From a virus (Duplodnaviria; Heunggongvirae; Uroviricota; Caudoviricetes): a stretch of DNA of 64,000 nt. The notes beneath the pieces were generated by a model. That model ran no database searches, had not been told where the DNA came from, and was given only the letters and a program-made list of their open reading frames with translations. The stretch covers positions 100,770 to 164,769 of IMG/VR virus record IMGVR_UViG_3300048672_000527; one strand, given 5' to 3'. A program made the translations under genes and the position numbers. Positions 4,924 through 43,484 of this stretch are shown piece by piece (position 1 is the first letter of the stretch; every line of letters begins with the position of its first letter).

Positions 4924-4998
4924 GCGACTCTAGCATAATGGTAGTGCCGAGAACTCATAATTCTTAAGGTCTGGGTTCGACTCCCGGGGGTCGCACCA
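4924..4998 (+). tRNA. tRNA-Met (anticodon CAT)
   Basis: acceptor GCGACTC/GGGTCGC, T-arm CTGGGTTCGACTCCCGG, loop CTCATAA, encoded CCA. Confidence 0.75.
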
Positions 4999-5336: not shown

Positions 5337-5540
5337 ATAGAAGTAATGGTAGTCAACTGACTTTCAGAAACGATTGGAACACCCCGGTTCGATTCCGGGC
5401 AGTTCCACCATAACTATTCTATAGGGTTCGACTCCCACCAATGACCATAAATCAGTTAATCCTGATCTGGTTCTAGTATAGTTATGATGGGGCTGAACAG
5501 GTTTTCGACTCCGAAAGAAGTAAGATAGATTAGCTACTCG
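5337..5540 (+). ncRNA. tRNA-like fragments / acceptor-T minihelix (GGAACACCCCGGTTCGATTCCGGGCAGTTCCACCA) plus two more T-arm-like hairpins
   Basis: three GGTTCGAYTCC-type T-arm motifs without complete cloverleaf. Confidence 0.3.
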
Positions 5541-5666
5541 TCAGCGATAGACGTAAAAACTAAATGTAAGTAAATGCAAATATTGCACAAAACGATGAGG
5601 TCTTCGCTCTTGTAGCGTGATCGACTCTGAGGTAACATAGCCTTATAACCGAATAATGTCTAGCAG

Positions 5667-15141: not shown

Positions 15142-15154
15142 ATTGGGGTTAATT

Positions 15155-15715
15155 ATGACAAGAATTTTGGCATTGGACGTAGGCGGAACGCCTCGGAGTT
15201 GGATTAGTTTAGAACAAGCGGCATGTTATCATGCCACAAACTCTGTTGCATGGCAATGGGGCGAAGAAAAATTTGTGCTACGTGGTGGATACCAAAACGA
15301 TGGTACTCAATCTGTGATTGAAACATCTAGTATTATCGCCGTCAAGTCACAGAGTGGCTTCAGTATGGATAAGATTCATAAGGAAGTTGTTTTGAGTAAC
15401 CGAACACTGTTCGGTCGTGACCGTAACACTTGTGCTTACTGTGGTCGTGAATTCGGTCCTAGTAAGCTCAGTCGGGATCATATTCACCCGCGTAGTCGTG
15501 GTGGATTGGATGTGTGGACGAACGTTGTAACTGCTTGCCGTGATTGTAACTGCGACAAGGATGACCAAACGTTGAAGGAAGCAGGTATGGAACTTTTGTA
15601 CCTACCTTATGTTCCCAGCCACGCTGAAAAGTTACTTTTGGAAGGACACAAGATATTAAATGACCAGATGATATTTCTTAAGGAAAGATTACCTAAGAAT
15701 TCAAGACTCAATTAA
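15155..15715 (+). CDS. HNH endonuclease (free-standing, homing-type)
   Basis: CAYCG..DHIHP..GG..N..CRDCN HNH motif; sits at edge of tRNA array. Confidence 0.8.
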   Translation: MTRILALDVGGTPRSWISLEQAACYHATNSVAWQWGEEKFVLRGGYQNDGTQSVIETSSIIAVKSQSGFSMDKIHKEVVLSNRTLFGRDRNTCAYCGREFGPSKLSRDHIHPRSRGGLDVWTNVVTACRDCNCDKDDQTLKEAGMELLYLPYVPSHAEKLLLEGHKILNDQMIFLKERLPKNSRLN

Positions 15716-16271: not shown

Positions 16272-16345
16272 AGGGTGTTGGTGTAATGGCAACACGGCGG
16301 TCTCCAAAACCGTTGTTAAAGGTTCGAGTCCTTTACGCCCTGCCA
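16272..16345 (+). tRNA. tRNA-Trp (CCA)
   Basis: acceptor AGGGTGT/ACGCCCT, loop CTCCAAA, T-arm GGTTCGAGTCC, CCA end. Confidence 0.8.
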
Positions 16346-16357
16346 AATATGAATTAT

Positions 16358-16432
16358 GCCCCGGTCGTCTAGTGGCTAGGATATCTGCCCTTCAAGCAGA
16401 GGAAGTGGGATCGAAACCCATTCGGGGTACCA
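16358..16432 (+). tRNA. tRNA-Glu (TTC)
   Basis: D-loop TCTAGTGGCTAGGA like E. coli tRNA-Glu; loop CCTTCAA. Confidence 0.75.
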
Positions 16433-16440
16433 AGATATGT

Positions 16441-16524
16441 GGAGCATTGGCAGAGAGGACGATTGCGTCTGACTGTAAATCAGATCTTAACAGCACGGTG
16501 GTTCGAATCCATCATGCTCCACCA
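16441..16524 (+). tRNA. tRNA-Tyr (GTA), class II
   Basis: acceptor GGAGCAT/ATGCTCC, loop CTGTAAA, long variable arm, TTCGAAT T-loop. Confidence 0.75.
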
Positions 16525-16620
16525 AATTTTCTGGGGCGGTACCATACAGTGTATCGAAATATGGAGTCACTTGTCGATAACGGCAGTGTAAAATCTTCCG
16601 TTCCTCGGGATCGTTATTAT
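16525..16620 (+). pseudogene. degenerate tRNA remnant (fragments ..GGGCGGTACCA and CTCGGGATCGTTATTATGGG)
   Basis: resembles 3' parts of neighbouring ATCGTTA-type tRNAs but no cloverleaf. Confidence 0.25.
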
Positions 16621-16696
16621 GGGCTGGTAGTGATAGAGGGCTACACGTCGCACTTGCAATGCGAAGATCGGGGATCGTTACCCCGCCGGTCCACCA
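16621..16696 (+). tRNA. tRNA-Ala (TGC); non-canonical T-loop ATCGTTA
   Basis: acceptor GGGCTGG/CCGGTCC, AC stem TCGCA/TGCGA loop CTTGCAA. Confidence 0.7.
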
Positions 16697-16822
16697 ATAA
16701 TTTGGGGCAGATGGTTCATTAAAATTATCCTCGAGGGGTGTTACTGATGGGTTCGAAACCAGAACATAACATTGTAAATAATTTTATTGTGGGTTCGATT
16801 CCCGCAGGCTCCACCAAATAAT

Positions 16823-16906
16823 GCGCCGGTGGCTAGTGGAAATTTGGTACACCTAACGGTCTTAGAAGCCGTGCTTTTGAGGGTTCGAGTCCCTCCCGGC
16901 GCACCA
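16823..16906 (+). tRNA. tRNA-Leu (TAG)
   Basis: perfect acceptor GCGCCGG/CCGGCGC, loop CTTAGAA, T-arm GAGGGTTCGAGTCCCTC; enlarged D region. Confidence 0.6.
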
Positions 16907-16912
16907 CTTGAT

Positions 16913-16986
16913 GGGGTTGAAGCTTTAAAGTGAAGCAACTGGCTTTTAACCAGTAGAAGAGGGGCCAGTACCCTCCAGCCCTACCA
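16913..16986 (+). tRNA. tRNA-Lys (TTT); T-loop GCCAGTA, D-loop lacks GG
   Basis: acceptor GGGGTTG/CAGCCCT, AC ACTGG-CTTTTAA-CCAGT. Confidence 0.65.
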
Positions 16987-17083
16987 ATTAGTAGAATGCA
17001 TGGTTGCCATCACCACAATGCGAATTGGCCTACAGCACTGTTTGATGTTTTAGTGTAGAATAAGAAAACATCAAGAATTTAAT

Positions 17084-17157
17084 GCCGCTTTAGTTAAAAA
17101 GTATAACATCGTGCTGATAACGCGAAGTCGGAGGAGCGTTACCTCCCGGCGGTACCA
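17084..17157 (+). tRNA. tRNA-Ile (GAT); T-loop AGCGTTA
   Basis: AC TCGTG-CTGATAA-CGCGA, D GTTA/TAAC, CCA end. Confidence 0.65.
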
Positions 17158-17163
17158 AATAAT

Positions 17164-17258
17164 GGAGTTAGTTTCCCGGAATGTGCCCGGGACCCGCATG
17201 TTGAGCGGTGACCTAAGACGTTGGGTAGCATAGGTTAAAGTCCTTTCAAACTCCACCA
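17164..17258 (+). tRNA. tRNA-like, abnormally long (95 nt), identity undetermined
   Basis: GGAGTTA ... AAACTCC-A-CCA acceptor pairing; internal arms not resolved. Confidence 0.3.
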
Positions 17259-17266
17259 ATAAATTT

Positions 17267-17343
17267 CTGGCATTCATAATAACTGGATAATTGACAAGGC
17301 TACGAACCTTGGGATGGGAGTTCGAATCTCTCATGCCGGACCA
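17267..17343 (+). tRNA. tRNA-Arg (ACG)
   Basis: AC CAAGG-CTACGAA-CCTTG; T-arm GGGAGTTCGAATCTCTC; CCA. Confidence 0.8.
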
Positions 17344-17451
17344 TGATGCACAGCATCGCTTTATGCTGTGGTAGAATAGCCTCTGGATACATGTTAACAA
17401 GCTTCTCAAACTACAACCAGAGTCCTCGCAAAAGGACATAGCAAGAATTTT

Positions 17452-17526
17452 GGTCTCAAAGTGTTCATGGACGCACACGACACTGTCACTGTCGAAGAGG
17501 GGGATCGTTACCCCCTGGGACCGCCA
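17452..17526 (+). tRNA. tRNA-Asp (GTC); T-loop ATCGTTA
   Basis: loop CTGTCAC identical to E. coli tRNA-Asp; acceptor GGTCTCA/TGGGACC. Confidence 0.75.
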
Positions 17527-17534
17527 ATTTTTAT

Positions 17535-17613
17535 TCCGTAAAACCCGAGCATGGTGCATGGGCGTGACTGTTAATCACTGGTTAGGCTGGTTCGATCCCA
17601 GCATGCGGAGCCA
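17535..17613 (+). tRNA. tRNA-Asn (GTT)
   Basis: loop CTGTTAA, T-arm GCTGGTTCGATCCCAGC, discriminator G like E. coli tRNA-Asn. Confidence 0.7.
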
Positions 17614-17704
17614 ATTGCGTAAGTTGCTAACATTGAAATATGTCGTTAAAGAGTAAAGAAGTTGGTATTATGGAATGCACATAATACGCGAATTTCAAAT
17701 ATTT

Positions 17705-17775
17705 CTCCGCGAAGCGTTACGGTAGCGTTCCTGACCTGGAATCAGGGGGCGGTGGTTCGACTCCACCCGCGGTGA
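17705..17775 (+). tRNA. tRNA-like (anticodon loop CCTGGAA, Pro-like?); CCA not encoded
   Basis: T-arm GGTGGTTCGACTCCACC, acceptor CTCCGCG/CGCGGTG; irregular D-arm. Confidence 0.4.
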
Positions 17776-17927
17776 CAAAATGAATGGGTTAGCAAGAGCC
17801 CAAGAGTAATCGCCGACCATGAGCTGCACGTGGTGTAAACAAGACCGATCATCTTGTCAACAACGGCGGGGTAAAAGACCCAAGAAACAGCACCGAATTG
17901 AAAAGAATGAAAATTCATTCTTATATG

Positions 17928-18000
17928 TGGGTATTAGTTCAATAGTAGAATATTCGTCTGTGAAACGAAAGACCAGGGAGCGTAACCCGGTACCCAACCA
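17928..18000 (+). tRNA. tRNA-His (GTG); T-loop AGCGTAA
   Basis: acceptor TGGGTAT/GTACCCA, AC TTCGT-CTGTGAA-ACGAA. Confidence 0.65.
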
Positions 18001-18008
18001 AAATATTT

Positions 18009-18084
18009 GCCTCTTAAGCTAATCAAGTGAAAGCGATGGACTGAAAATCCGTAGAGACTGGCGCGATACCAGTAGGAGGCACCA
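18009..18084 (+). tRNA. tRNA-Phe (GAA); T-loop CGCGATA
   Basis: acceptor GCCTCTT/AGGAGGC, AC ATGGA-CTGAAAA-TCCGT. Confidence 0.7.
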
Positions 18085-18098
18085 AAATGCAAAAAATT

Positions 18099-18174
18099 GC
18101 TCGCGAAGTATTAGCTGGTGGTATGCTTGTTTCGTAATCAAGAGGATCGAGTTCGAGGCTCGACGTGAGCTCCA
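18099..18174 (+). tRNA. tRNA-Thr (CGT), tentative
   Basis: acceptor GCTCGCG/CGTGAGC, T-arm TCGAGTTCGAGGCTCGA, loop TTCGTAA. Confidence 0.6.
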
Positions 18175-18175
18175 G

Positions 18176-18204
18176 TTTACTTTTATTTGTGGGTGTGTTA
18201 TAAT
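18176..18204 (+). promoter_or_regulatory. early promoter with -10 inside stem-loop (GTGTT-ATAATA-AACAC), drives the 1-kb non-coding block
   Basis: TTTACTTTTATTTGTGGGTGTGTTATAAT. Confidence 0.65.
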
Positions 18205-19248
18205 AAACACTTCAACAAATTACTAACATTAAAGATTATTTTGTGATTTTTAATGTTAGTATAAAATAAGATTTAACGAGGCGTAGCTCGTGGCATTGAC
18301 GAAAGTCAGTGTTGTGTGATAAGTGTAGTGATACACCCAAAGATGTGATGCTTACATAGCACCGCCTAGCAATAGGTCACTCTACGCAAGCCTGCTCAGA
18401 CTCGTGAGGGTCCCATCATGGATAAGACCTGTGGTGGTAACAGTGAAGCAAGTGTAATGGAAAGAACATTGGCTTAGACGCCCGCAAGGGGAACGTCAGT
18501 CGATGGAGAGTAACAGGTGGTGCTGACCTCATTACAAACCAACTTGGCAACTGGTATGAGAAAAGGTAGTCAGAGTAATCCGAGGAGTCGCATCCAAGGG
18601 TGGCTGGCAGTTTGAATGGTTTATGGTGGTACGCGAAAGCCGAGACCCAACATGAATCGTGAAAGACGACTGAGTAGCTCGCGAGGCAAAAGGTACGTGG
18701 TGTGTTGTATTTCGTGGAACAAAATTTTGCGAAGCAACTGAGACTGCACATCACAGTAAGTTATTTGTAGCATAATGGTAATGCAATTTCCTGTTAAGAA
18801 ATACACTGTTGGTTCAAATCCAACCAAAATTTAAAACGCAAAGACAGTCTCGGTAGTATGTGAAAGACATCTAAAACTTTGATCCGTAAGGATAACGAAG
18901 TCTAGTGAAACTCGCAAGGTGACATTAGTTTATGGTGGAAACTTCATAGATGGTTAGCGCCGTCGAACAGCTCGCAAGGTTGGTGGGGAATGATACTGTA
19001 GAATAGCATATTACGATAAGTCTACTGCCTGACTTTCAAAACGGCGATGTTAACGGTTTACGGATACGCGAAAGCTGAGACCCCGTGGAAGAGGAGCGAA
19101 GTGTGACTCGCAAGGTTACATTATAATGCACGAAGAACCGTTGTAACGACTGTATTCTCAGGTCGCTAAAGTGTTTATTATATTGAGCAAATTATAAGCA
19201 AGTGTTTAATATATTGTACATTTTAATGTTTTTTAACTGGAGTTTATT
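18205..19248 (+). ncRNA. candidate large structured non-coding RNA (~1 kb)
   Basis: no plausible ORF either strand; GC higher than flanks; repeated modules (CTCGCAAGG x4, ACGCGAAAGCYGAGACCC x2, GTTTATGGTGG x2); GNRA hairpins. Confidence 0.35.
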
Positions 19249-19464
19249 ATGAGTTTTAAGCGTGATGAAAATAACCGTTTTGTTCCAACGAAACATTTCA
19301 AGATGACTAAGTCGGCAAAGCGATTGGTAGCTGCAATTCAAAGTAAAGAATTGCGTGATCACTTTAAGGGTATGATGCAACAAGCAATTATGCAGTCATT
19401 TGAAGTGATTGAAAAGAAGAAAAAGAATCCGTTGACCGGCAAGGTTGAGGCGGAAGCCGTGTAA
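19249..19464 (+). CDS. hypothetical small basic protein
   Basis: ORF with RBS GGAG; inside tRNA array. Confidence 0.45.
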   Translation: MSFKRDENNRFVPTKHFKMTKSAKRLVAAIQSKELRDHFKGMMQQAIMQSFEVIEKKKKNPLTGKVEAEAV

Positions 19465-19472
19465 ATATTACA

Positions 19473-19554
19473 GCGGGCGAGTGGAACAGATATATAAACC
19501 ATTCCGGTCTCATAAGCCGGCGATACTAGGTGCGACTCCTAGGCTCCGCATCCA
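19473..19554 (+). tRNA. tRNA (CAT anticodon: Met/Ile2-type), atypical D region
   Basis: AC CCGGT-CTCATAA-GCCGG; T-arm CTAGGTGCGACTCCTAG. Confidence 0.45.
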
Positions 19555-19559
19555 ATAAT

Positions 19560-19633
19560 TCTCGTTTAGCTCAATGGTGGAGCACCTCCTCTATGGAGAG
19601 CGGCCAGTGGATCGGTACCACTAACGGGAGCCA
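19560..19633 (+). tRNA. tRNA, anticodon uncertain (TAT?); T-loop ATCGGTA
   Basis: acceptor TCTCGTT/AACGGGA, D GCTC-AATGGTG-GAGC, CCA. Confidence 0.5.
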
Positions 19634-19638
19634 AATTT

Positions 19639-19714
19639 GGTCATATAGTGTAGAAGTTCTGCACAAGAGATTCATAACCTCTAAGTCTAGGAGCGTTACC
19701 TAGTATGACCACCA
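19639..19714 (+). tRNA. tRNA-Met (CAT); T-loop AGCGTTA
   Basis: perfect acceptor GGTCATA/TATGACC, loop TTCATAA. Confidence 0.65.
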
Positions 19715-19852
19715 CCGAGTATAACTCGAAGACTTGAGTGCTAATCTACACACTCTGAGGAATGTTCACCAAGAAACAGAACGAACAGTCTTCCAAAACT
19801 TTATTTGGCCGCGAAAGCGTCACCGGCTTAGCATAAGATCACAGGTGAATAT

Positions 19853-19927
19853 GCGGGATAAGTGTTGGTGATTACATTTCTGACTTCCAATCAGACGTAT
19901 GGGGTTTGACTCCCCAATCCCGCTCCA
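19853..19927 (+). tRNA. tRNA-Gly (TCC)
   Basis: perfect acceptor GCGGGAT/ATCCCGC; AC TCTGA-CTTCCAA-TCAGA as in T4 tRNA-Gly. Confidence 0.8.
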
Positions 19928-20029
19928 TTTTCAATGTACATACAAACCTCGAATAATTAGAGTCACAATCTGATTTAATTTGAGTAAATGTAGTTCATTG
20001 TTGTTTGTTTAAATGTACATCGAAAATGG
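19925..20029. repeat. 17-bp inverted repeat (CCATTTTCAATGTACAT / ATGTACATCGAAAATGG) flanking 70 nt
   Basis: seen directly; overlaps 3' end of tRNA-Gly and precedes CDS 20041. Confidence 0.5.
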
Positions 20030-20040
20030 ATAAATAATAG

Positions 20041-20247
20041 ATGCTTGATACAGAAAACAATAGACGTCTTGCTAGTAAATTATCGGATGCAGTTGATGAA
20101 TGCATTCTGATGTATGAACGCGGCAATGATAAACTTGCTATTGAAACACTATCCCGTCTTGGGTTTAGCGCAATGAGTATCCATCGAATATTAATGAATC
20201 CCGATCATCGTAGAAGATATATCAACGCGATGATCGAAGGTAATTAG
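20041..20247 (+). CDS. hypothetical small protein
   Basis: ORF inside tRNA array; stop TAG abuts next tRNA. Confidence 0.4.
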   Translation: MLDTENNRRLASKLSDAVDECILMYERGNDKLAIETLSRLGFSAMSIHRILMNPDHRRRYINAMIEGN

Positions 20248-20329
20248 CTGAAGTCGCATAGCGGCAATTGCAACGCTCTTGTAAGGCGTCGGGAAACCTA
20301 CGTGAGTTCGAGTCTCACCTTCAGCACCA
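20247..20329 (+). tRNA. tRNA-Thr (TGT)?, with extended variable region
   Basis: perfect acceptor GCTGAAG/CTTCAGC, T-arm GTGAGTTCGAGTCTCAC, loop CTTGTAA. Confidence 0.55.
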
Positions 20330-20334
20330 AATAT

Positions 20335-20423
20335 GGAGTTATGCGACGATGGCGTCAAGCGGTCTTGAAAACCGTGCTACTGTTGATGAAACGGTAAGGG
20401 TTCGATTCCTTGTAGCTCCTCCA
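20335..20423 (+). tRNA. tRNA-Ser (TGA), class II
   Basis: acceptor GGAGTTA/TAGCTCC, AC GCGGT-CTTGAAA-ACCGT, long variable arm. Confidence 0.7.
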
Positions 20424-20425
20424 GA

Positions 20426-20521
20426 ATATCAGTAGTTTAAAGAGGTGCAAAAGATAAATCCTCGTAGCAAAACAGAGTTAGAGCTCACTCGTTGATGGTT
20501 CAAGCCCATCCTGGTATGCCA
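20426..20521 (+). tRNA. tRNA-like, abnormally long (96 nt), identity undetermined
   Basis: acceptor ATATCAG/CTGGTAT, T-arm GATGGTTCAAGCCCATC, G-CCA end. Confidence 0.35.
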
Positions 20522-20527
20522 ATATAA

Positions 20528-20601
20528 GCCCTTTTATTTCAATAGAAGAATAGATCTTTGGTAAGGATCAGACAGAGGAGCGTAACCTCTAAAGGGCACC
20601 A
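20528..20601 (+). tRNA. tRNA-Thr (GGT); T-loop AGCGTAA
   Basis: perfect acceptor GCCCTTT/AAAGGGC; loop TTGGTAA. Confidence 0.65.
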
Positions 20602-20607
20602 GAATAT

Positions 20608-20696
20608 GCGGATGTGGCGGGAATTGGAAGACCCGGCTGCCTCAAAAGTAGTTGATCGCGAAAGCGTTGTGAGTTCGAGTCTCACCATCCGCACCA
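20608..20696 (+). tRNA. tRNA-Leu (CAA), class II
   Basis: perfect acceptor GCGGATG/CATCCGC; loop CTCAAAA; variable arm with GCGAAAGC hairpin. Confidence 0.7.
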
Positions 20697-20839
20697 AGAT
20701 AATCCATATCTGGTTTAAGGTAAAGTCACAACCAGAAAGTTTCAATAACTGCGATATTAACTTCGGTTAGTATAACAGGTTGATTCAAAACCTTAAGTGA
20801 ACGAGTTTGGTAGTGGAAGCCAAACAAGATGTATTTGGA

Positions 20840-20925
20840 GACACGTTGGCTGAGAGGACGAAGGCAACAGTCTGCAAAACTGAAGTAGAGATACCACAGG
20901 GGTTCGAATCCCCTACGTGTCTCCA
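20840..20925 (+). tRNA. class-II-length tRNA, anticodon unresolved (GCA?)
   Basis: perfect acceptor GACACGT/ACGTGTC; T-arm AGGGGTTCGAATCCCCT. Confidence 0.5.
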
Positions 20926-21061
20926 AATACATTTATTGCGTGTGCACGCGGATACCGCCCTGACGAGTTAGTCAACCAAGACACAGTTCGTCGTACCGTT
21001 GCGCGTGGCAGTCGAAAGATCAGTTCATAACTTGGATATTATGGGCGGCAATAAGTAATAT

Positions 21062-21149
21062 GGAAGGTTGGGTGAGCGGTTAAACCAGCGGTTTGCTAAA
21101 CCGCGACTCTGAAAGGGGTCCATCAGTTCGAGTCTGATACCTTCCGCCA
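21062..21149 (+). tRNA. tRNA-Ser (GCT), class II
   Basis: perfect acceptor GGAAGGT/ACCTTCC; AC GCGGT-TTGCTAA-ACCGC. Confidence 0.75.
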
Positions 21150-21153
21150 ATAT

Positions 21154-21245
21154 GCGAGTGAGACTTGATAGTCAGAGAGGTCTTATAAACCTTTTAGCGC
21201 CAGATTAGCGTTCTTGAGTGGGTTTGATTCCCACCACTCGTACCA
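21154..21245 (+). tRNA. tRNA-like, 92 nt, anticodon loop CTTATAA (TAT/TAA?), irregular D/variable arms
   Basis: acceptor GCGAGTG/CACTCGT; T-arm GTGGGTTTGATTCCCAC. Confidence 0.4.
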
Positions 21246-21261
21246 AGTTAAATAGTTTTAT

Positions 21262-21337
21262 TCCTCGGATGCGGAAAAGTGATGCAACTGGCTTTGAACC
21301 AGTCCAAAAGTAGGGGCAGTACCTACCCGGGGTGCCA
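21262..21337 (+). tRNA. tRNA-Gln (TTG); T-loop GGCAGTA
   Basis: AC ACTGG-CTTTGAA-CCAGT; acceptor with first-pair mismatch. Confidence 0.65.
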
Positions 21338-21345
21338 ATTATAAT

Positions 21346-21422
21346 CCGTGTGTAGCGCAGTCTGGTAGCGCATCTGCTTTGGGAGCAGAGGGTCGCAGGT
21401 TCGAATCCTGCTACACGGACCA
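21346..21422 (+). tRNA. tRNA-Pro (TGG)
   Basis: canonical: D GCGC-AGTCTGGTA-GCGC, loop TTTGGGA, T-arm GCAGGTTCGAATCCTGC. Confidence 0.85.
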
Positions 21423-21528
21423 GTTTAAATATGCAATATAAGTTTTGTTGGTGTGGTCAGATTATTTGGAATGATACCAATGTTTGCCCATGCTGCGGTA
21501 GAAAAGTGTTTTGGAAACAAAGATTCTT

Positions 21529-21584
21529 TAGTCCCGCCAGACAGTTCGATTCTGTTGGCTCTTCTGGGTGAGAGGGCGGGACTA
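21529..21584 (+). ncRNA. tRNA-like element S1: 10-bp helix (TAGTCCCGCC/GGCGGGACTA) enclosing a canonical T-arm (ACAGTTCGATTCTGT)
   Basis: seen directly; not a complete cloverleaf. Confidence 0.35.
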
Positions 21585-21589
21585 AGGGA

Positions 21590-21662
21590 TTTTAACACCC
21601 ATGATCTAGGTTCGATTCCTGGCTGTCGCGAGGTCCGATGGGTTCGGGCATGGGTGTTAAAA
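21590..21662 (+). ncRNA. tRNA-like element S2: 14-bp helix (TTTTAACACCCATG/CATGGGTGTTAAAA) enclosing T-arm-like hairpins
   Basis: 73 nt, tRNA-sized but closing helix far too long for an acceptor stem. Confidence 0.35.
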
Positions 21663-21670
21663 TTCTTTAT

Positions 21671-21744
21671 GCGTGCTTAGTTTAATGGTAGAACCAGACG
21701 TTGCCAACGTTTAAGCAGGAGTTCGATTCTCCTAGCCCGCACCA
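21671..21744 (+). tRNA. tRNA-Gly (GCC)
   Basis: D GTTT-AATGGTA-GAAC, loop TTGCCAA, T-arm AGGAGTTCGATTCTCCT. Confidence 0.8.
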
Positions 21745-21847
21745 GTTAAAGGTTCACATAGGCATCAGACCACGTCCCAGTGCCTTGAATATGTGTTAAC
21801 ATTGTGTAGCTTGGTCTAATGACTACACAGAGCCCTAGTAGATATTT

Positions 21848-21922
21848 GCGATGTTAGCTTAGTGGTAAAGCAGATGCCTCTAAAACATTTGATCGAGGGT
21901 TCGATCCCCTCACATCGCGCCA
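21848..21922 (+). tRNA. putative suppressor tRNA, anticodon CTA (reads UAG)
   Basis: perfect acceptor GCGATGT/ACATCGC, D GCTT-AGTGGTA-AAGC, AC GATGC-CTCTAAA-ACATT, T-arm GAGGGTTCGATCCCCTC. Confidence 0.55.
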
Positions 21923-21986
21923 GATTTATAACCCTAATTGAAAGGACGTGTCATGTTGTAGATGCCGAACAAAGATCCTCCATAAT

Positions 21987-22000
21987 AAACCTGCAGGTTT
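21987..22000. repeat. perfect 14-nt palindrome AAACCTGCAGGTTT
   Basis: seen directly; possible terminator or processing site after tRNA block. Confidence 0.4.
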
Positions 22001-22037
22001 AATTAAATGTGCACGTTTATTATTTTTGGAGAATCAA

Positions 22038-22352
22038 ATGGAAAAGACTTTTTATATCAGTAAAGAACAATTTAATGCGGTAACAGCCGCTTGGAAGAAT
22101 AGTAAAGATCATACTGCCGCTGAGCATATCGTTTATAACGTATTGCGCAACAAACCGGTTGATAATGGCTTTACGGAGAAACATAAAAACATTCAAGGAT
22201 GTGATTCTTGGTACGGTTTTAATCAAGCATTAAGTAATGCAAGATGGATGTGTAAACTCCAAAATGATAGTAAGAAGCAACACTTTAAACAACGTTTCGG
22301 TATTGACATGCCGGAAGATATTGTTTCAAAGTTTGAGGGAGTTCAGAAATGA
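22038..22352 (+). CDS. hypothetical protein
   Basis: ORF 21948 trimmed to ATG after GGAG. Confidence 0.5.
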   Translation: MEKTFYISKEQFNAVTAAWKNSKDHTAAEHIVYNVLRNKPVDNGFTEKHKNIQGCDSWYGFNQALSNARWMCKLQNDSKKQHFKQRFGIDMPEDIVSKFEGVQK

Positions 22353-22651
22353 ATCCCTACATTTATATGTTCGTGCGACGGGACTTGAGTGTCCCTCAAC
22401 AAATAGTACAGACTGCTCACGCGGTCGATGAAATAGGAAAACGGTATCAATCCGGTAATGAAAATTATATGGTTTTGATAGATGTTAAAAATGAACAATC
22501 ATTAGTTGAAGTATCAGAATCCCTTAAGGAAAAGGATATAGAACATGAGATGTTCTTTGAACCCGATATAGACTCATATACAGCAATCGCAACACGTCCA
22601 TTAATTGGTGATGAGCGTATGAGTTTGAAAGGTTATAGGTTAATGCGTTAA
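22349..22651 (+). CDS. PTH2-like peptidyl-tRNA hydrolase (putative)
   Basis: FVRRDLSVPQQIVQTAHAVDE resembles PTH2 VVRTDL..AAQCSHAA motif; RBS GAGGGAG. Confidence 0.55.
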   Translation: MNPYIYMFVRRDLSVPQQIVQTAHAVDEIGKRYQSGNENYMVLIDVKNEQSLVEVSESLKEKDIEHEMFFEPDIDSYTAIATRPLIGDERMSLKGYRLMR

Positions 22652-22676
22652 CTTTTATTTGCCACTGTGTTATAAT
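22648..22676 (+). promoter_or_regulatory. early promoter; -10 inside stem-loop GCCACT..AGTGGC; drives tRNA-Lys
   Basis: TTAACTTTTATTTGCCACTGTGTTATAAT. Confidence 0.55.
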
Positions 22677-22685
22677 AGTGGCTAT

Positions 22686-22759
22686 GGGCTTCAAACATTG
22701 TGGCGATGTAATCGGCTCTTAACCGATAAAGCAGAGTTCAATTCTCTGGAGGCCTACCA
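22686..22759 (+). tRNA. tRNA-Lys (CTT)
   Basis: D ACAT-TGTGGCG-ATGT, AC ATCGG-CTCTTAA-CCGAT, T-loop TTCAATT. Confidence 0.75.
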
Positions 22760-22761
22760 AG

Positions 22762-22790
22762 TTTACTTTTATTATTCTTTGTGGTATAAT
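22762..22790 (+). promoter_or_regulatory. early promoter placed for leaderless transcript (ATG 7 nt after -10)
   Basis: GTTTACTTTTATTATTCTTTGTGGTATAAT TATATC ATG. Confidence 0.65.
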
Positions 22791-22796
22791 TATATC

Positions 22797-23132
22797 ATGA
22801 AAAAATTGATCTCAATCCTCACTTTAATGCTAACAGCTTGCGCTAGCGTACAAAAAATTGATACTGTCGAACTTGTGAAACCTACACGTTTCACTGAAGA
22901 ATTCACTATGGTCGTTAAGGTCGTAGAATTCAGAAAAATGGAACAACTGTGTTCTAAACTCGGTACGGGTTATAGCTCTAATGGTTGTTCTGTAACAAAT
23001 CTGGATACCAAAACGTGTACGATTTATGTTCCTGAAGTATTGCAGATGGATGATACTAAAGGTATGAAAATCTGGGGTCATGAATTAATGCACTGTGTTT
23101 ATGGTAAATACCATCACACTGAGGATATGTAA
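22797..23132 (+). CDS. small lipoprotein with HExxH motif (putative Zn-metallopeptidase-like)
   Basis: signal peptide + lipobox LTAC; HELMH near C-terminus. Confidence 0.55.
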   Translation: MKKLISILTLMLTACASVQKIDTVELVKPTRFTEEFTMVVKVVEFRKMEQLCSKLGTGYSSNGCSVTNLDTKTCTIYVPEVLQMDDTKGMKIWGHELMHCVYGKYHHTEDM

Positions 23133-23139
23133 AATTAAT

Positions 23140-23222
23140 GCGGGTTTGGGGGAATTGGTAGTCCCAGCAGACTTAAAATCTGCCGTTAATTCGTATCGGT
23201 TCGAGTCCGATAACCCGCACCA
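23140..23222 (+). tRNA. tRNA-Leu (TAA), class II
   Basis: acceptor GCGGGTT/AACCCGC; AC GCAGA-CTTAAAA-TCTGC; T-arm CGGTTCGAGTCCG. Confidence 0.8.
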
Positions 23223-23228
23223 AATAAT

Positions 23229-23304
23229 CTGGCGTTCGTATAATGGATCAATACATTAGGCTTCTACCCTTTTGATGGGGGTTCGATTCCCTCACGCCGG
23301 ACCA
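23229..23304 (+). tRNA. tRNA-Arg (TCT)
   Basis: D GTAT-AATGGAT-ATAC-like as in T4 tRNA-Arg; loop CTTCTAC. Confidence 0.7.
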
Positions 23305-23305
23305 A

Positions 23306-23436
23306 TTGTTTTATAAGAATATCTCTGTTACGGTCACGTCTGCCGCCATAGGCAGAGACGGATCGGTAGCTGGCACTGCGAAAGTCTAGTCCTGCCAGGG
23401 ATGAAGATGATATTTCAGAGCATTCTTATAAAACAA
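23306..23436. repeat. structured element bracketed by perfect 15-bp inverted repeat TTGTTTTATAAGAAT / ATTCTTATAAAACAA (~100 nt interior with hairpins)
   Basis: seen directly; no ORF, no cloverleaf. Confidence 0.5.
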
Positions 23437-23441
23437 TTTAT

Positions 23442-23516
23442 GCCTCGTTAGCTCAGAAGTAGAGCAACACCCTTACAAGGTGAAGGTCGGGATTGCAAAA
23501 TTCTCACGAGGTACCA
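23442..23516 (+). tRNA. tRNA-Val (TAC); 9-nt T-loop
   Basis: D GCTC-AGAAGTA-GAGC; loop CTTACAA; acceptor GCCTCGT/ACGAGGT. Confidence 0.65.
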
Positions 23517-23518
23517 AT

Positions 23519-23677
23519 TTAGAAGCAGCTGGTAGAACAGCAACGGGTTCGGAGGTCTAGGGTCCGTGTCGTATGATGAGGTGAACGGTAGACGCAAGTC
23601 ACACATCTAAAAGCCCATGAAGGCGATGACAATTTGGTTATGAGCACAGCGCAATGTCTCAGAATCCAAACTTCTAA
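23519..23677. repeat. ~150-nt structured element bracketed by inverted repeat ATTTAGAAG / CTTCTAATT
   Basis: seen directly; internal hairpins; no CCA end. Confidence 0.35.
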
Positions 23678-23683
23678 TTAATT

Positions 23684-23758
23684 GCTCGGGTAGCTCAGAG
23701 GAAGAGCACTTGGTCGACATCCAAGAGGTCGGGATTTCGAAATTCCCACCGAGTACCA
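23684..23758 (+). tRNA. tRNA-Val (GAC); 9-nt T-loop
   Basis: D GCTC-AGAGGAA-GAGC; AC CTTGG-TCGACAT-CCAAG. Confidence 0.7.
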
Positions 23759-23763
23759 ATTAA

Positions 23764-23860
23764 TGGCATGATTCTAGATGGGCGATGTCCCGCGTGTTCA
23801 CAGGTTTGCAAGCCTAAACACAACACGAGAGAGGTGGTGAAACTCCACCCTTGCCGACCA
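23764..23860 (+). tRNA. tRNA-like, abnormally long (97 nt), identity undetermined
   Basis: acceptor TGGCATG/CTTGCCG-A-CCA; T-arm GGTGGTGAAACTCCACC. Confidence 0.35.
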
Positions 23861-23918: not shown

Positions 23919-24278
23919 ATGAAAAAAGATACCTATATTTTTAATGCCATCATCAATAACGTAGTTGATGGCGATACCGTAGATGCTATTGTTGATCTTG
24001 GTTTCTATGTTAATTACAATACGCGTCTTCGTCTCTATGGTATTAATACACCAGAACTTCATGCTACTGATCCAGCTGTTAGAGCTAAGGCCTTAGAAGC
24101 AAAGAACTATGTAATTAGTAAACTTCCAGTTGGTACTGCTGTAACACTACAGACATTTGGACAAGAGAAGTATGGCCGCTTTCTTGCCAAAGTATTCATT
24201 AGTGACTATAATCTAAACGATGATCTGGTGGCTCAAGGACTTGCTAGCATTTACTTCGGTAGCGGCCCCAAAACTTAA
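23919..24278 (+). CDS. staphylococcal-nuclease-like thermonuclease (SNase)
   Basis: DGDTVD ... RLRLYGINTPE SNase catalytic motif. Confidence 0.8.
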   Translation: MKKDTYIFNAIINNVVDGDTVDAIVDLGFYVNYNTRLRLYGINTPELHATDPAVRAKALEAKNYVISKLPVGTAVTLQTFGQEKYGRFLAKVFISDYNLNDDLVAQGLASIYFGSGPKT

Positions 24279-24314: not shown

Positions 24315-24839
24315 ATGGAAACATTAGTTCATCATCTAAAGTCAAGGCATTGTGATCTAACGTTACACCGCCCTTGGCTTGACGAAGAAAATAATGTGGC
24401 CACGTTCCCACTCTGGAATCTCAGTGGCCAGATGGTCGGATACCAACAGTATCGACCCGATGCATCTAAGACACAAAATAATGATCCTAAGTTGGGTCGT
24501 TATTTCACACTCCGCAAGCAACCTACGCTTGCTTTATTCGGAGTTGAGTCTCTTCACCTAACACCCAAAGTTGTATTCTTGACGGAAGGTGTTTTTGACG
24601 CTTGTCGATTAACCGAACGTGGGGTTAGTGCTCTGGCTGTTCTGTCGTGTGATGTGAACCGTGAGTACAGGGGTTGGCTCCGTGCTCTGAATCGCCGAGT
24701 TGTTGCTGTATGCGATAACGACGAGGCGGGGCGGAAATTGGCTAAGTTTGGTGATGAAGCAGTTTTCATGGCAGAAAAGGACTTGGGTGATTCTAGTGAC
24801 GAAGAAGTCACAGAACTTTTGAAAAAGTATGGATTATGA
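24315..24839 (+). CDS. Toprim-domain protein
   Basis: VFLTEGVFDA..(E) and VVAVCDNDEAGRKLA (DxD) Toprim motifs. Confidence 0.65.
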   Translation: METLVHHLKSRHCDLTLHRPWLDEENNVATFPLWNLSGQMVGYQQYRPDASKTQNNDPKLGRYFTLRKQPTLALFGVESLHLTPKVVFLTEGVFDACRLTERGVSALAVLSCDVNREYRGWLRALNRRVVAVCDNDEAGRKLAKFGDEAVFMAEKDLGDSSDEEVTELLKKYGL

Positions 24840-26962: not shown

Positions 26963-27571
26963 ATGCGGTTGATTCCTCAGATTGTAGCAAAAGCCCGGTT
27001 TCGTTATGAAGTTGACGCTGAGGTGCGGGCTTATCATAATTTCGAGCATGCAACACGCGTAGCTCAAAATTGCTTGACACTGAATGAAAACGCAGCTGAT
27101 GAACTTCTATATGCGGCGTTGTATCATGATGCTGTGTATATTCCCGGTTCCGGTGAAGATGCCAACGAACGATGCTCGGCAGCTGCATTTAAGAAGGATT
27201 GGAACACGTATTGTAAAAATTCTCTTCACAGAGTATCAGTTCTCGATGTTGAATCTGTGTGCCAGTTAATTAGAAATACAAGCATTGATATGCATTTAAC
27301 GCATATGCGTCTGCAAGGCAATCTGGCCACATTGCTGGATGCTGATCTAGAATCTCTGGCAACTAATTATTATAAGTTTACTTTAAATCAAGAAGCGATT
27401 ATAATTGAACAAGGTGGTGAAGTTAATAAAGAGAATTTGCGCAAATGTGCAGAATTCCTGAGACAATTCCTTCAGGTACGACCATCAATCTACCACACAG
27501 ATAAAGCACGTGAGCTTTGGGAAAAACAAGCTCGTGAAAATATTTTGAAATTATTGGACGAAACTCAATGA
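26963..27571 (+). CDS. HD-domain phosphohydrolase
   Basis: HNFEHATRV .. ALYHDAVY HD motif. Confidence 0.7.
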   Translation: MRLIPQIVAKARFRYEVDAEVRAYHNFEHATRVAQNCLTLNENAADELLYAALYHDAVYIPGSGEDANERCSAAAFKKDWNTYCKNSLHRVSVLDVESVCQLIRNTSIDMHLTHMRLQGNLATLLDADLESLATNYYKFTLNQEAIIIEQGGEVNKENLRKCAEFLRQFLQVRPSIYHTDKARELWEKQARENILKLLDETQ

Positions 27572-28201: not shown

Positions 28202-29269
28202 ATGAAAATTTATCTAGTTGGCGGTGCTGTCCGCGATATGTTGATGGGGCTGGAACCTAATGACCGAGATTATGTGGTTGTTGGTTCCTCACCAAACGAA
28301 ATGTTAGACTTGGGATATACCCAAGTCGGTGCGGATTTTCCTGTATTCCTGCACCCTGTGACGGGAGAAGAATACGCTCTCGCCCGTAGTGAACGTAAGA
28401 TCGGACCGGGGTATCTTGGCTTTGAAACTCAATTTGACCACACGGTTACTCTTGAGCAAGATTTGGAACGGCGTGACTTTACGATGAATGCCATCGCAAT
28501 TGATATTGAAACTAAAGAGATCATTGATCCATTCTGCGGCCAACTGGATATTAAAAATAAAATCATTAGACATACAAGCCCCGCTTTTGATGAAGACCCA
28601 CTACGAGTCATTAGAGCTGCTAGATTTTACACAAAATATAATGGTTTTAGAATAGATACAAACACATTTAGATTGTGTAAATCTATAGCCGAATCCCGCT
28701 CACTTAACGAAATTAGTGATGAGCGATTTTGGGCAGAATTTAAAAAGGTTAATTCAAAAAACTTGGTTAATTTCTTTTCTGTGCTTTTTGCATTTGGAGT
28801 TTTCGACCACTGTGATATGTTCAAAGATACATTTGGTGAAACAGATTTGTATGTTTTTGATGATATGTCTCATAATTTGTCACACATTAATAGACTGAAC
28901 ATTTTTGTGGCGAGAATTGCTTACAGATGTAATGCAAAACTAACACGGCCTTCAGTACCATCAGATGTCCGTTGGTTGATGAGTATCTTAAAATCTAACT
29001 ATAATCTTTTATATAATGCGGATGAAGCAGTTGATTTTATCTCACATGCAAGAGGTTGGTTTGATATTGAGCGTTTAGTTATTGCTAGACTAGCTTTGCC
29101 TTACTGTGCTTTTTCATTAGAAGAACTTATGATCATTGTTGCAAGAACTTCAAAAATTGATACCTCATGTGCAATTGATTCTTCATTGAGAAAACTAGAA
29201 GGTAAAGAAATTGGTGATTGGATTAGAAATGAACGCATTAAAATTACCGAAAATATTTTGAAAGGTTAA
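28202..29269 (+). CDS. tRNA nucleotidyltransferase (CCA-adding enzyme) head domain protein
   Basis: YLVGGAVRD .. RDYVVVG .. pol-beta NT fold motifs. Confidence 0.8.
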   Translation: MKIYLVGGAVRDMLMGLEPNDRDYVVVGSSPNEMLDLGYTQVGADFPVFLHPVTGEEYALARSERKIGPGYLGFETQFDHTVTLEQDLERRDFTMNAIAIDIETKEIIDPFCGQLDIKNKIIRHTSPAFDEDPLRVIRAARFYTKYNGFRIDTNTFRLCKSIAESRSLNEISDERFWAEFKKVNSKNLVNFFSVLFAFGVFDHCDMFKDTFGETDLYVFDDMSHNLSHINRLNIFVARIAYRCNAKLTRPSVPSDVRWLMSILKSNYNLLYNADEAVDFISHARGWFDIERLVIARLALPYCAFSLEELMIIVARTSKIDTSCAIDSSLRKLEGKEIGDWIRNERIKITENILKG

Positions 29270-42844: not shown

Positions 42845-43020
42845 CATATGATCTAAAAGAAAGAGCTGAAGACATTTTATTGAGTTTTGCTACAATGACA
42901 GCTCTAGTTAGAATCAAATACGGCAATCTTGAACCAGATATTTCTCGGGAAATAGTCAAAGCAGATCAGTTATGTGATGAATTAGCTCAATATATTAAAA
43001 CTGTGAAGGGTGAAATATGA
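42841..43020 (+). CDS. small protein (59 aa), not in ORF track
   Basis: ATGA overlaps on both sides. Confidence 0.35.
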   Translation: MTYDLKERAEDILLSFATMTALVRIKYGNLEPDISREIVKADQLCDELAQYIKTVKGEI

Positions 43021-43484
43021 TGTTTCGCGATGGAAATATTCTTGATCAATGTATTGGTGGGAATATTATTGTACACGGATGTAATGCACAAGGTGTAATG
43101 GGTTCTGGTGTGGCAAAACAAATCAGAGAAAAATATCCAGATGTATTCAAGAAATATATTGACGATTTAAAATCGACAGCATATTTGTCTAAAGTTGGTA
43201 TTGTTTCTTGGTATCAAGCACCAAGGGGTGAATGGATCGCATCAGCTATAACACAAGCCACATACGGAAAATCTCCACAACGATATGTGTCATATGATGC
43301 CATTGATACATGTTTCAGAAAAGTGATCCAGTTTGCTGTTAATAATGGTCTTTCTGTTCACGTACCAGATATGATTGGAGCAGGTCTTGGTGGTGGAAAC
43401 CGAGCAGTCATAGCAGCTATTATTTCATCTGTTATGGATGAGTATTCATTTAAAGACTTGACGGTTTGGAAATATGAACTTTGA
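43017..43484 (+). CDS. Macro-domain protein (ADP-ribose binding/processing)
   Basis: HGCNAQGVMGSGVAKQI .. MIGAGLGGGN Macro signature. Confidence 0.75.
   Translation: MMFRDGNILDQCIGGNIIVHGCNAQGVMGSGVAKQIREKYPDVFKKYIDDLKSTAYLSKVGIVSWYQAPRGEWIASAITQATYGKSPQRYVSYDAIDTCFRKVIQFAVNNGLSVHVPDMIGAGLGGGNRAVIAAIISSVMDEYSFKDLTVWKYEL

Follow-up and report, generated by a model that had tools for sequence, protein, structure and literature searches.

The nucleotides G18, G19, T54, Psi55 and C56 of transfer RNA (tRNA) are among the most conserved in biology. Phage tRNAs are known to escape anticodon nucleases through changes in the anticodon loop (PMC10264068, PMC11555353), and nucleases acting on the T-loop have been described as well. 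CbCash, a Schlafen nuclease associated with type III CRISPR systems, cleaves the T-loop of tRNAs on the 5' side of U55, and a single substitution of U54 or U55 abolishes cleavage; whether phage tRNAs are targeted was left open by its authors (PMC13462974). The toxin CdiA-CT E479 cleaves between T and Psi (PMC9086364), and nucleases of the Schlafen type occur widely in defence against phages (PMC13056530). The combination of a horizontally transferred tRNA cluster with the structured RNA GOLLD and an HNH gene has been reported (PMC6582537), and mitochondrial tRNAs are functional despite non-canonical or missing contacts between the D- and T-loops (PMC4394434). Here we describe a tRNA array on a 64,000-nucleotide (nt) stretch of a virus of the Caudoviricetes (IMG/VR record IMGVR_UViG_3300048672_000527, positions 100,770 to 164,769; this whole stretch is called the window), in which one third of the tRNAs carry altered T-loops.

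Altered T-loops in the tRNA array

At standard thresholds, that is with ARAGORN at default settings and the Rfam tRNA model RF00005 at its gathering score, 30 tRNA genes were found on the + strand of the array (Table 1). U54 and/or U55 was missing in 10 of them, and 8 of these 10 also lacked G18. This corresponds to an initial annotation of the region, which had put the non-canonical T-loops at roughly ten, or one third of the genes. Every T-loop named there was recovered in a cloverleaf parse: ATCGTTA in the Ala and Asp tRNAs, AGCGTTA in tRNA-Ile(GAU) and the CAU (Met) tRNA, AGCGTAA in the His and Thr(GGU) tRNAs, CGCGATA in tRNA-Phe, GCCAGTA in tRNA-Lys(UUU) and GGCAGTA in tRNA-Gln. Beyond these, odd loops were present in tRNA-Glu (ATCGAAA), in the tRNA-like unit at 19560 (ATCGGTA) and in tRNA-Val(UAC) (TGCAAAA), and two T-loops carried U56, TTTGACT in tRNA-Gly(UCC) and TTTGATT in the Ile(UAU)-like gene. 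The Leu, Ser, Tyr, Arg, Pro, Asn, Cys and Trp tRNAs of the array were canonical.

Nine odd tRNAs matched the Rfam tRNA model at 40.1-49.8 bits (gathering threshold, 29), and the covariance model aligned their T-arms at the odd loops and not elsewhere. The tRNA-Asp was called by ARAGORN only, without an Rfam match; tRNA-Gln and the unit at 19560 were not reported by Rfam, and the Ile(UAU)-like gene matched only the tRNA-Sec model, below its cut-off. The minimum-energy fold was a cloverleaf in all 10 odd tRNAs tested. In nine of these the T hairpin with the 7-nt odd loop was formed, the exception being tRNA-Val(UAC), which folded with a 6-bp T-arm and a 4-nt loop. The odd tRNAs formed 19-21 of 21 stem pairs and retained C56 (or a covarying 19:56 pair) and a purine at position 57 (R57). 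They show the usual cloverleaf layout, with an acceptor stem of 7 bp, a D-arm, an anticodon stem of 5 bp whose 7-nt loop has U33, and a T-stem of 5 bp with a 7-nt loop.

The D-loops changed along with the T-loops. AG replaced GG in every window tRNA with G55 or C55, and GG was present in every tRNA with A54 and U55; D-loops without GG, such as that of tRNA-Lys(TTT), had been noted in the initial annotation. A homologue of tRNA-Lys(UUU) in another array (locus L136; L-numbers are labels of the array loci that were scanned) combined GGCAGTA with TAAAGTG. The 9-nt T-loops proposed for two Val tRNAs turned out to have 7 nt; the unusual closure behind that proposal is real, as the closing pair 53:61 is U-U and is kept in a homologue.

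With default settings ARAGORN reported 24 tRNAs, all of them on the + strand at 16272-23758; the - strand gave none. The other six (Lys-UUU 16913, Ile-GAU 17084, His 17928, Phe 18009, Thr-GGU 20528 and Val-UAC 23442) were found only with RF00005. Relaxed ARAGORN settings, a custom scan (7-bp acceptor stem, 5-bp T-stem, then N-CCA) and manual folding yielded about 6-10 further tRNA-like units (Leu-UAG 16823, Asn 17535, 19560, Gln 21262, 17164, 19475, 20426, 23764 and a unit resembling transfer-messenger RNA (tmRNA) at 16704-16816), so that the array holds up to about 40 in total. The 35-38 tRNA-like genes counted earlier are thus a fair number for tRNA-like units, although only 30 pass the standard cut-offs. 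In the cloverleaf parse nearly every gene of the array encoded its CCA end. Aberrant CCA-ended units, none of which reached standard tRNA thresholds, lie at 17164-17258, 17535-17613, 19475-19553, 20426-20521 and 23764-23860 on the + strand. They include two extra Asn(GUU)-like genes, one of which has an extra arm and a length of 95 nt, and two units of 93-94 nt with long inserts. A CAU unit among them combines the T-loop TGCGACT with a D-loop of 14 nt and ends in an A-UCCA tail.

Covariation and occurrence in other arrays

Two samples of tRNA arrays were collected from IMG/VR. Sample 1 was obtained by a search for the Ile-GAU anticodon loop combined with AGCGTTA and CCA and comprised at least 120 loci. 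Clean tRNA-Ile genes with the D-loop AAAAGTA or AATAGTA were found on at least 116 contigs, and their stems were very diverse and compensated. Sample 2 was seeded on canonical tRNA-Trp, and hence without bias towards odd loops, and comprised 120 loci. The custom cloverleaf scan gave 1605 tRNAs (1056 distinct) in sample 1 and 993 distinct tRNAs in sample 2, compared with 65 and 0 matches in the respective reversed-sequence controls. Since the controls gave far fewer matches, chance is excluded as their source. Together the samples hold about 2,000 distinct tRNAs from 240 loci.

Because A18:G55 is not a standard pair, covariation was assessed from contingency tables in Python. The counts were made in sample 1 with the seed Ile tRNAs excluded, for 18:55 and 19:56 with 7-nt D-loops only, and for 54:58 over all lengths. 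The combination 18:55 was G:U in 249 tRNAs, A:G in 33 and another in 3 (Fisher p = 2e-42; 14 isotypes, 19 loci). Position 19:56 was G:C in 274, A:U in 7, U:A in 3 and G:U in 1, and 54:58 was U:A in 880, A:U in 64, A:A in 18, G:G in 18 and C:A in 7. Single-change intermediates were rare at all three pairs. Sample 2 repeated the 18:55 pattern, with an AG D-loop in 22 of 24 tRNAs carrying G55.

Closely homologous tRNAs differed by the double change. Among Phe homologues, ATCT-GG-TGA occurred with ATCGAAA (GG and U55, L166) and ATCT-AG-TGA with AGCGTAA or TGCGTAA (AG and G55, L200, L146 and L171); the window gene has ATCA-AG-TGA with CGCGATA. Close homologues of tRNA-Thr(GGU) had either AAAGGTA with ATCGTTA or AAAAGTA with AGCGTTA, and those of tRNA-Lys(UUU) either TAAGGTG with ATCGTTC or TAAAGTG with GGCAGTA. 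In five Asp homologues (L096, L129, L142, L148 and L116) both loops were kept and the stems had changed in compensating fashion. The covarying D/T elbow that the initial annotation had suspected was therefore found across related viral arrays, and uncompensated loss of contacts between the two loops, of the mitochondrial or pseudo-tRNA type, was not found. The covariation, the double switches between homologues and the Asp loops kept with compensating stems argue that the genes with odd elbows are under selection for a folded elbow and are not pseudogenes.

Position 8:14 is a further covarying core contact. Six window tRNAs (16913, 17452, 17705, 18099, 19853 and 22686) have A8:U14 in place of U8:A14, as do 33 of about 1,100 tRNAs of related arrays, and this swap removes the site of 4-thiouridine (s4U8).

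In sample 2, U54/U55 was missing in 10% of the non-Trp tRNAs; at least one odd tRNA was present in 45 of 61 arrays, and the median fraction per array was 0.08. The share of odd tRNAs differed strongly between isotypes, being 42% for Asp, 41% for His, 36% for Ile-GAU, 31% for Thr-GGU, 23% for Lys-CUU, 21% for CAU, 17% for Gln and 14% for Phe; for Pro, Ala, Ser, Arg and Leu it was about 0%. The odd set of the window largely coincides with this list. The selectivity noted earlier was thus seen again in an independent sample, where Asp, His, Ile, Thr-GGU, Lys, Met, Gln and Phe were affected. The fraction in the window (10/30, or 0.37 with the same scanner) lies near the top of the range. Among the highly converted arrays, L086 had 15 of 15 and L098 9 of 15 tRNAs converted, the latter all of the A54 class, and arrays binned with Verrucomicrobia had 14/15 (L204), 6/6 (L211), 11/11 (L216), 6/7 and 10/13.

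Cells were surveyed for the odd Ile tRNA only, using a CCA-independent pattern in genomes that represent 185,579 species, one per species. The 24 matches in 596 Gb were close to chance, and 10 of them were real tRNAs, 6 of these in metagenome-assembled genomes of Verrucomicrobia. All nine genomic loci that were scanned proved to be dense tRNA arrays with no rRNA match. The class is therefore assigned to accessory, mostly viral, tRNA arrays, and the core tRNA genes of cells do not belong to it; the possibility that the verrucomicrobial matches were tRNAs of cellular rRNA operons was rejected on the same grounds. Two almost fully G55/A18-converted arrays lie on a Verrucomicrobiae chromosome of 5.9 Mb (L211, OY969416) and on a 778-kb Methylacidiphilales contig (L204). 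Their context includes a rhamnosidase, a sigma factor, AraC and polysaccharide export, and the L211 array adjoins an RtcB RNA-repair ligase. Because these two loci have ordinary chromosomal flanks, the class is not strictly viral.

The feature is thus not peculiar to the phage of the window; it is widespread in arrays of uncultured phages and occurs in a few bacterial chromosomal arrays. No cultured phage with the odd-elbow class was found, and a BLAST comparison of the common odd Ile tRNA with cultured phages gave partial matches only. The arrays of the cultured cyanomyoviruses S-PM2 and S-CREM1 were wholly canonical and lacked encoded CCA. Window DNA compared with cultured phages gave generic tRNA matches and a single GOLLD match. 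Synteny around the gp41-type helicase was tried as a route to orthologous arrays and abandoned: the 80 IMG/VR loci obtained, at up to 58% identity, carried just 0-2 tRNAs, all of them canonical (Ala, Leu, Arg), and no tRNA array stood beside the nearest helicase relatives. An exact look-up of the helicase protein returned one 7-kb Logan contig only.

Possible reasons for the altered elbow

The altered genes very probably encode functional tRNAs with a compensated, re-coded elbow. The tertiary contacts of about one third of the window tRNAs would then have been re-coded and not lost: U55 gives way to G (rarely C) together with G18 to A, U54:A58 becomes A:U, G:G, C:A or A:A, G19:C56 is kept or swapped to A:U or U:A, and R57 is kept. 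Because the contacts appear to be re-coded without being lost, the L-shape is probably preserved despite removal of the T-Psi-C sequence, and processing, charging and use in translation would still be possible. The encoded CCA, the covariation and the conservation lend only indirect support to expression, processing, aminoacylation and ribosome use of the odd tRNAs.

Re-coded tRNAs would no longer display the U54-U55 dinucleotide. The likeliest benefit would be resistance to nucleases that cut the T-loop at U54/U55, either Schlafen-type enzymes like CbCash or toxins like CdiA-CT E479, so that phage translation could continue once the host tRNAs are destroyed. CbCash requires both U54 and U55 (PMC13462974), and one or both are replaced in the odd tRNAs. 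Since CbCash and CdiA-CT E479 cut at U54/U55, evasion of host nucleases or elbow-reading enzymes, already suggested in the initial annotation, seems concretely plausible; nuclease resistance and its role as the selective driver are inferred. The isotype bias would reflect a general pressure combined with isotype-specific tolerance, the isotypes recognised through a canonical elbow changing least. As a whole, the explanation that functional tRNAs have had their elbow re-coded, with its shape kept, to escape T-loop nucleases reading U54-U55 is tentative, with a chance somewhat short of even.

Several points weigh against escape from T-loop nucleases. That A18:G55 and A54:U58 elbows fold like canonical ones and resist nucleases is deduced from sequence. 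Only one third of the window tRNAs are converted, and because many isotypes of the window stay canonical, translation would still break down under a nuclease that cuts all T-loops with UUC. A broad T-loop nuclease would not by itself lead one to expect the strong isotype bias, neither a Schlafen nor another T-loop nuclease is linked to the host of the phage, and the tmRNA of the fully converted L086 array has a canonical T-loop. The cell survey covered the Ile-GAU/AGCGTTA pattern, and a lineage with other odd loops in its ordinary tRNAs may exist.

The main rival is relaxed constraint, under which fast-evolving, briefly used phage tRNAs would drift among shape-preserving pairs and be functional without any specific advantage. 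It agrees with the compensated nature of all changes and the rarity of single-change intermediates, with the usually low odd fraction per array (median, 0.08-0.17), with the mixture of canonical and odd genes in the window and with the A8:U14 swaps, which lie outside the T-loop. However, drift does not account for the clustering of the changes at positions 54 and 55 with C56 and R57 kept, and the scarcity of single-change intermediates also speaks against it. Moreover, whole arrays such as L086 and L216 are converted at U54/U55, the same isotypes were converted repeatedly in independent samples, and the Ile tRNA with AGCGTTA and AAAAGTA has been conserved even though its stems diverge widely. 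Drift is thus considered unlikely. Decay or chance resemblance to tRNAs is hardly credible as the origin of the odd genes. Their Rfam scores are lower than those of canonical neighbours (40-47 vs 50-68 bits), six were missed by ARAGORN at default settings and tRNA-Gln by both tools, and tRNA-His has a T-stem mismatch. Pseudogenes are nevertheless contradicted by the covariation of tertiary pairs, and also by intact stems, encoded CCA, near-zero control matches and conservation over hundreds of contigs with compensating stem changes.

Two further explanations were considered. TrmA (m5U54), TruB (Psi55) and TrmI (m1A58) have as their substrates exactly the positions substituted in the odd tRNAs, and the re-coding might serve to escape these or other non-cutting elbow readers (RNase P, T-box leaders, the ribosomal L1 stalk); phage tRNAs would then do without modification by the host, or be kept outside its regulation. 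Retention of the C56:G19 outer stacking platform fits this as well. On the other hand, we know of no benefit of avoiding these modifications, canonical tRNAs stand in the same array, and no replacement enzyme for elbow modification was found among the window open reading frames (ORFs) scanned with Pfam, which makes this explanation improbable. Self-immunity shares its sequence argument with evasion: a T-loop nuclease encoded by the phage, or by one of its relatives, would destroy host tRNAs, and the re-coded tRNAs would form the protected replacement set, for which fully converted arrays would be suited. A Vibrio phage reportedly drives degradation of host tRNAs and replaces them with its own. 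Yet such a nuclease would also cut two thirds of the tRNAs that the phage itself encodes, and Pfam recognised no Schlafen-like protein, other tRNase or T-loop nuclease among the scanned ORFs of the window (most of those of at least 150 amino acids (aa) and a few smaller ones); self-immunity is therefore regarded as quite improbable.

Returning to nuclease escape, its widest form would be a second, shape-preserving elbow code (A18:G55; A54:U58, G54:G58 or C54:A58; G19:C56 kept or swapped) that has arisen repeatedly, at times over entire tRNA sets, in accessory arrays of phages and of some bacteria (such as the verrucomicrobial array beside RtcB), as a translation kit hardened against T-Psi-C-cutting nucleases of defence or competition. 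This is possible but must be treated with some doubt. If true, the T-loop would be a major, so far unrecognised front in the arms race over tRNA, and the invariance of T-Psi-C in cells would not be a structural necessity.

Genomic context and comparison with known systems

The genome to which the window belongs is that of a T4-like phage, with about 40% G+C. Its family B polymerase is 42% identical to cyanomyovirus gp43, and it also encodes a gp44/gp45-like clamp loader and clamp, UvsX, a gp41-type helicase, RNase H, PhoH, ThyX, DNA ligase, NAMPT and a NadR-like protein; the tRNA array thus lies between replication genes of the T4-like kind. The genes downstream of the array look like a neighbourhood for RNA repair and counter-defence. 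As context, the CCA-adding-type enzyme may act in repair of tRNA 3' ends and the Rnl1-type ligase with the phosphoesterase in RNA or tRNA repair. Together with the PTH2-like ORF and the two tmRNA-like genes, they would fit a theme of tRNA maintenance. In the last 2 kb (62001-64000) the G+C content climbs to 0.52, from about 0.40 in the rest of the window, and the AT skew is strong; the ORF at 62876-63676 has no Pfam match.

Table 1. Features of the array and its surroundings in the window
Feature	Position	Strand	Characteristics	Basis
tRNA array	16272-23860	+		ARAGORN, Rfam, relaxed ARAGORN, custom scan
tRNA-Glu(UUC)	16358-16432	+	T-loop ATCGAAA (A54, A58, A60); D-loop AGTGGCTA, GG kept	ARAGORN; homologues with same loop in L119, L082, L156
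tRNA-Ala(UGC)	16621-16696	+	T-loop ATCGTTA (A54:U58 swap); GG in D-loop	ARAGORN, Rfam, fold
tRNA-Lys(UUU)	16913-16986	+	T-loop GCCAGTA (G54, C55, G58); D-loop TAAAGTG (A18 G19); A8:U14	Rfam 43.2 bits, fold
tRNA-Ile(GAU)	17084-17157	+	T-loop AGCGTTA; D-loop AAAAGTA (A18:G55, A54:U58)	Rfam; 92-93% identical to L105, L114, L082
tRNA-Asp(GUC)	17452-17526	+	T-loop ATCGTTA; D-loop TCATGGAC; A8:U14	ARAGORN
tRNA-His(GUG), with G-1	17927-18000	+	T-loop AGCGTAA; D-loop AATAGTA; one A-G T-stem mismatch	Rfam 40.1 bits
tRNA-Phe(GAA)	18009-18084	+	T-loop CGCGATA (C54:A58, G55); D-loop ATCAAGTGA (A18)	Rfam 47.4 bits
tRNA-like gene, ambiguous anticodon loop	19560-19633	+	T-loop ATCGGTA; D-loop AATGGTG	Relaxed and custom scans
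tRNA(CAU)	19639-19714	+	T-loop AGCGTTA; D-loop AGAAGTTCT (A18)	ARAGORN, Rfam, fold
tRNA-Gly(UCC)	19853-19927	+	T-loop TTTGACT (U56); D-loop TGGTGATT, read as G18 A19 = A19:U56 swap; A8:U14	ARAGORN
tRNA-Thr(GGU)	20528-20601	+	T-loop AGCGTAA; D-loop AATAGAA (A18)	Rfam 46 bits, homologues, fold
tRNA-Ile(UAU)-like	21154-21245	+	T-loop TTTGATT (U56); 4-nt D-loop; long variable arm	ARAGORN; tRNA-Sec model 33.9 bits, below cut-off
Candidate tRNA-Gln(UUG)	21262-21337	+	T-loop GGCAGTA; D-loop AAAAGTG	Custom scan, cloverleaf fold; missed by ARAGORN default and Rfam
tRNA-Val(UAC)	23442-23516	+	T-loop TGCAAAA (G55); U53-U61 closure; D-loop AGAAGTA (A18)	Rfam 49.8 bits
tRNA-Val(GAC)	23684-23758	+	T-loop TTCGAAA; U53-U61 closure; GG in D-loop	ARAGORN; U-U closure also in homologue L187
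GOLLD RNA (conserved 3' domain)	18697-19164	+		Rfam RF02032, 175.1 bits (cut-off 150)
HNH endonuclease gene	15143-15715	+	Directly upstream of array	Pfam HNH_5, 1.4e-15
Small PTH2-like (peptidyl-tRNA hydrolase) ORF	22349-22651	+	Within array; weak match	Pfam PTH2 2.4e-4, 21.7 bits, below cut-off 23
Staphylococcal-nuclease homologue	23919-24278	+	Downstream of array	
Toprim protein	24315-24839	+	Downstream of array	
HD-domain protein	26963-27571	+	Downstream of array	
Nucleotidyltransferase, CCA-adding / poly(A) polymerase family	28202-29269	+		Pfam PolyA_pol, 1e-20
Macro domain protein	43017-43484	+	Downstream of array	
T4 Rnl1-type RNA ligase, then calcineurin-like phosphoesterase	45896-48087	+		Pfam RNA_lig_T4_1 1.3e-18; Metallophos 2.9e-10

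GOLLD lies within the array, with the HNH gene nearby, and contains at 18760-18833 a tRNA-Asn-like unit with a weak acceptor stem. The structured sequence from about 18260 onwards is probably part of it. Its best DNA match, at 68.7%, was Sinorhizobium phage Phosso, in which a single tRNA is found in the GOLLD neighbourhood. GOLLD was considered as a companion of the odd-elbow class and rejected, as it was absent from 12 other odd-elbow arrays scanned. Strongly structured RNAs not assigned to a family were present in gaps between tRNA genes on the + strand: 23305-23441 forms a 16-bp closing stem round three hairpins (z-score, -5.4), 17776-17926 has a z-score of -3.7, and 21530-21670 forms a stem of about 20 bp enclosing T-arm-like hairpins (GGTTCGATTCC).

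About 11 kb upstream of the array, the + strand carries a separate tRNA(CAU) at 4924-4998 and a permuted, two-piece type tmRNA at 5348-5620 (RF04321, 82.7 bits). Cyanobacteria and the alpha- and beta-proteobacteria are the groups in which tmRNAs are typically permuted, and this one hints at the host. The 113-nt tmRNA-like unit at 16704-16816 (+) has the acceptor GGGGC...GCUCCACCA with G3:U70 (alanine identity), a canonical T-arm and a short internal segment. It scored 23.5 bits with the Rfam tmRNA model, below the cut-off, and may be an RNA consisting of a mini tRNA-like domain. In other arrays, the permuted tmRNA of L112 (9294-9628, - strand) had the G55 T-loop TGCAAAT, and the tmRNA of L086 (7094-7530, + strand) kept the canonical GGTTCGAATCC although its array is fully converted. 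The idea that all tRNA-like RNAs of converted arrays avoid UUC was therefore not upheld.

A tRNA of the amber-suppressor type, with anticodon CUA and a canonical elbow, is encoded at 21848-21922 (+). Of the 89 + strand ORFs of at least 80 aa in the whole window, 1 ended with TAG, 45 with TGA and 43 with TAA. Recoding of TAG was rejected, since no ORF of the window was meaningfully lengthened when TAG was read as sense; TAG thus appears to be avoided rather than recoded.

Hundreds of natural tRNAs with coordinated replacements provide a ready series for separating elbow sequence from elbow shape. They also offer candidate resistant tRNAs, with matched, presumably sensitive homologues, for a question that was open in 2026, namely how phage tRNAs fare against T-loop-cutting Schlafen nucleases (PMC13462974). 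The tRNA complements of phages are under-counted, because odd tRNAs score low or escape the finders (ARAGORN at default settings missed 6 of 30, and one candidate was missed by both programs). Elbow-recoded tRNAs could possibly be used as orthogonal or nuclease-resistant scaffolds.

The T-loop of eukaryotic initiator tRNA is AUCGAAA (A54, A60); for the A54:U58, A18:G55 and G54:G58 classes we know of no counterpart in cytosolic tRNAs. The A54/A60 chemistry of the initiator T-loop has been discussed (PMC10602860). Window tRNA-Glu and its homologues carry ATCGAAA like the initiator, in which A54 is compatible with a functional L-shape, but here the loop occurs in phage elongator tRNAs. Mitochondrial tRNAs likewise have lost G18, G19 or the T-Psi-C consensus. 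Unlike these, which mostly lose contacts, the odd tRNAs appear to keep their elbow contacts, because they have lost neither G19:C56 nor R57 and show covariation at the remaining pairs. The clusters described in PMC6582537 resemble the window in the large tRNA cluster, the GOLLD enclosing a tRNA-like unit and the adjacent HNH gene; no altered T-loops are reported there, and the term T-loop is absent from the text.

CbCash and CdiA-CT E479 act at the U54-U55 step, the positions replaced in the odd tRNAs. They are presumed selective agents and not relatives of the feature, and CbCash was studied on E. coli tRNAs only. A close parallel is found in the phage tRNAs that escape anticodon nucleases (PMC10264068, PMC11555353), which are also encoded in arrays, have the nucleotides read by the nuclease substituted, keep their decoding and are proposed to sustain translation. 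In contrast, the substitutions in the window lie in the T- and D-loops (54, 55, 58 and 18) with compensating partners, and the resistance is proposed. The work on anticodon-nuclease escape leaves the T-loop unconsidered, and its eLife paper does not mention T-loop, D-loop or elbow; literature searches on A18/G55, the phage tRNA elbow and T-loop variants found no description of the odd-elbow class. Giant phage tRNA arrays, the combination of tRNA cluster, GOLLD and HNH, and the escape of phage tRNAs from tRNA-targeting defence were already known. In the literature searched, neither an elbow with covarying A18:G55 and A54:U58 in elongator tRNAs of phages, nor its wide occurrence, nor converted arrays were found.

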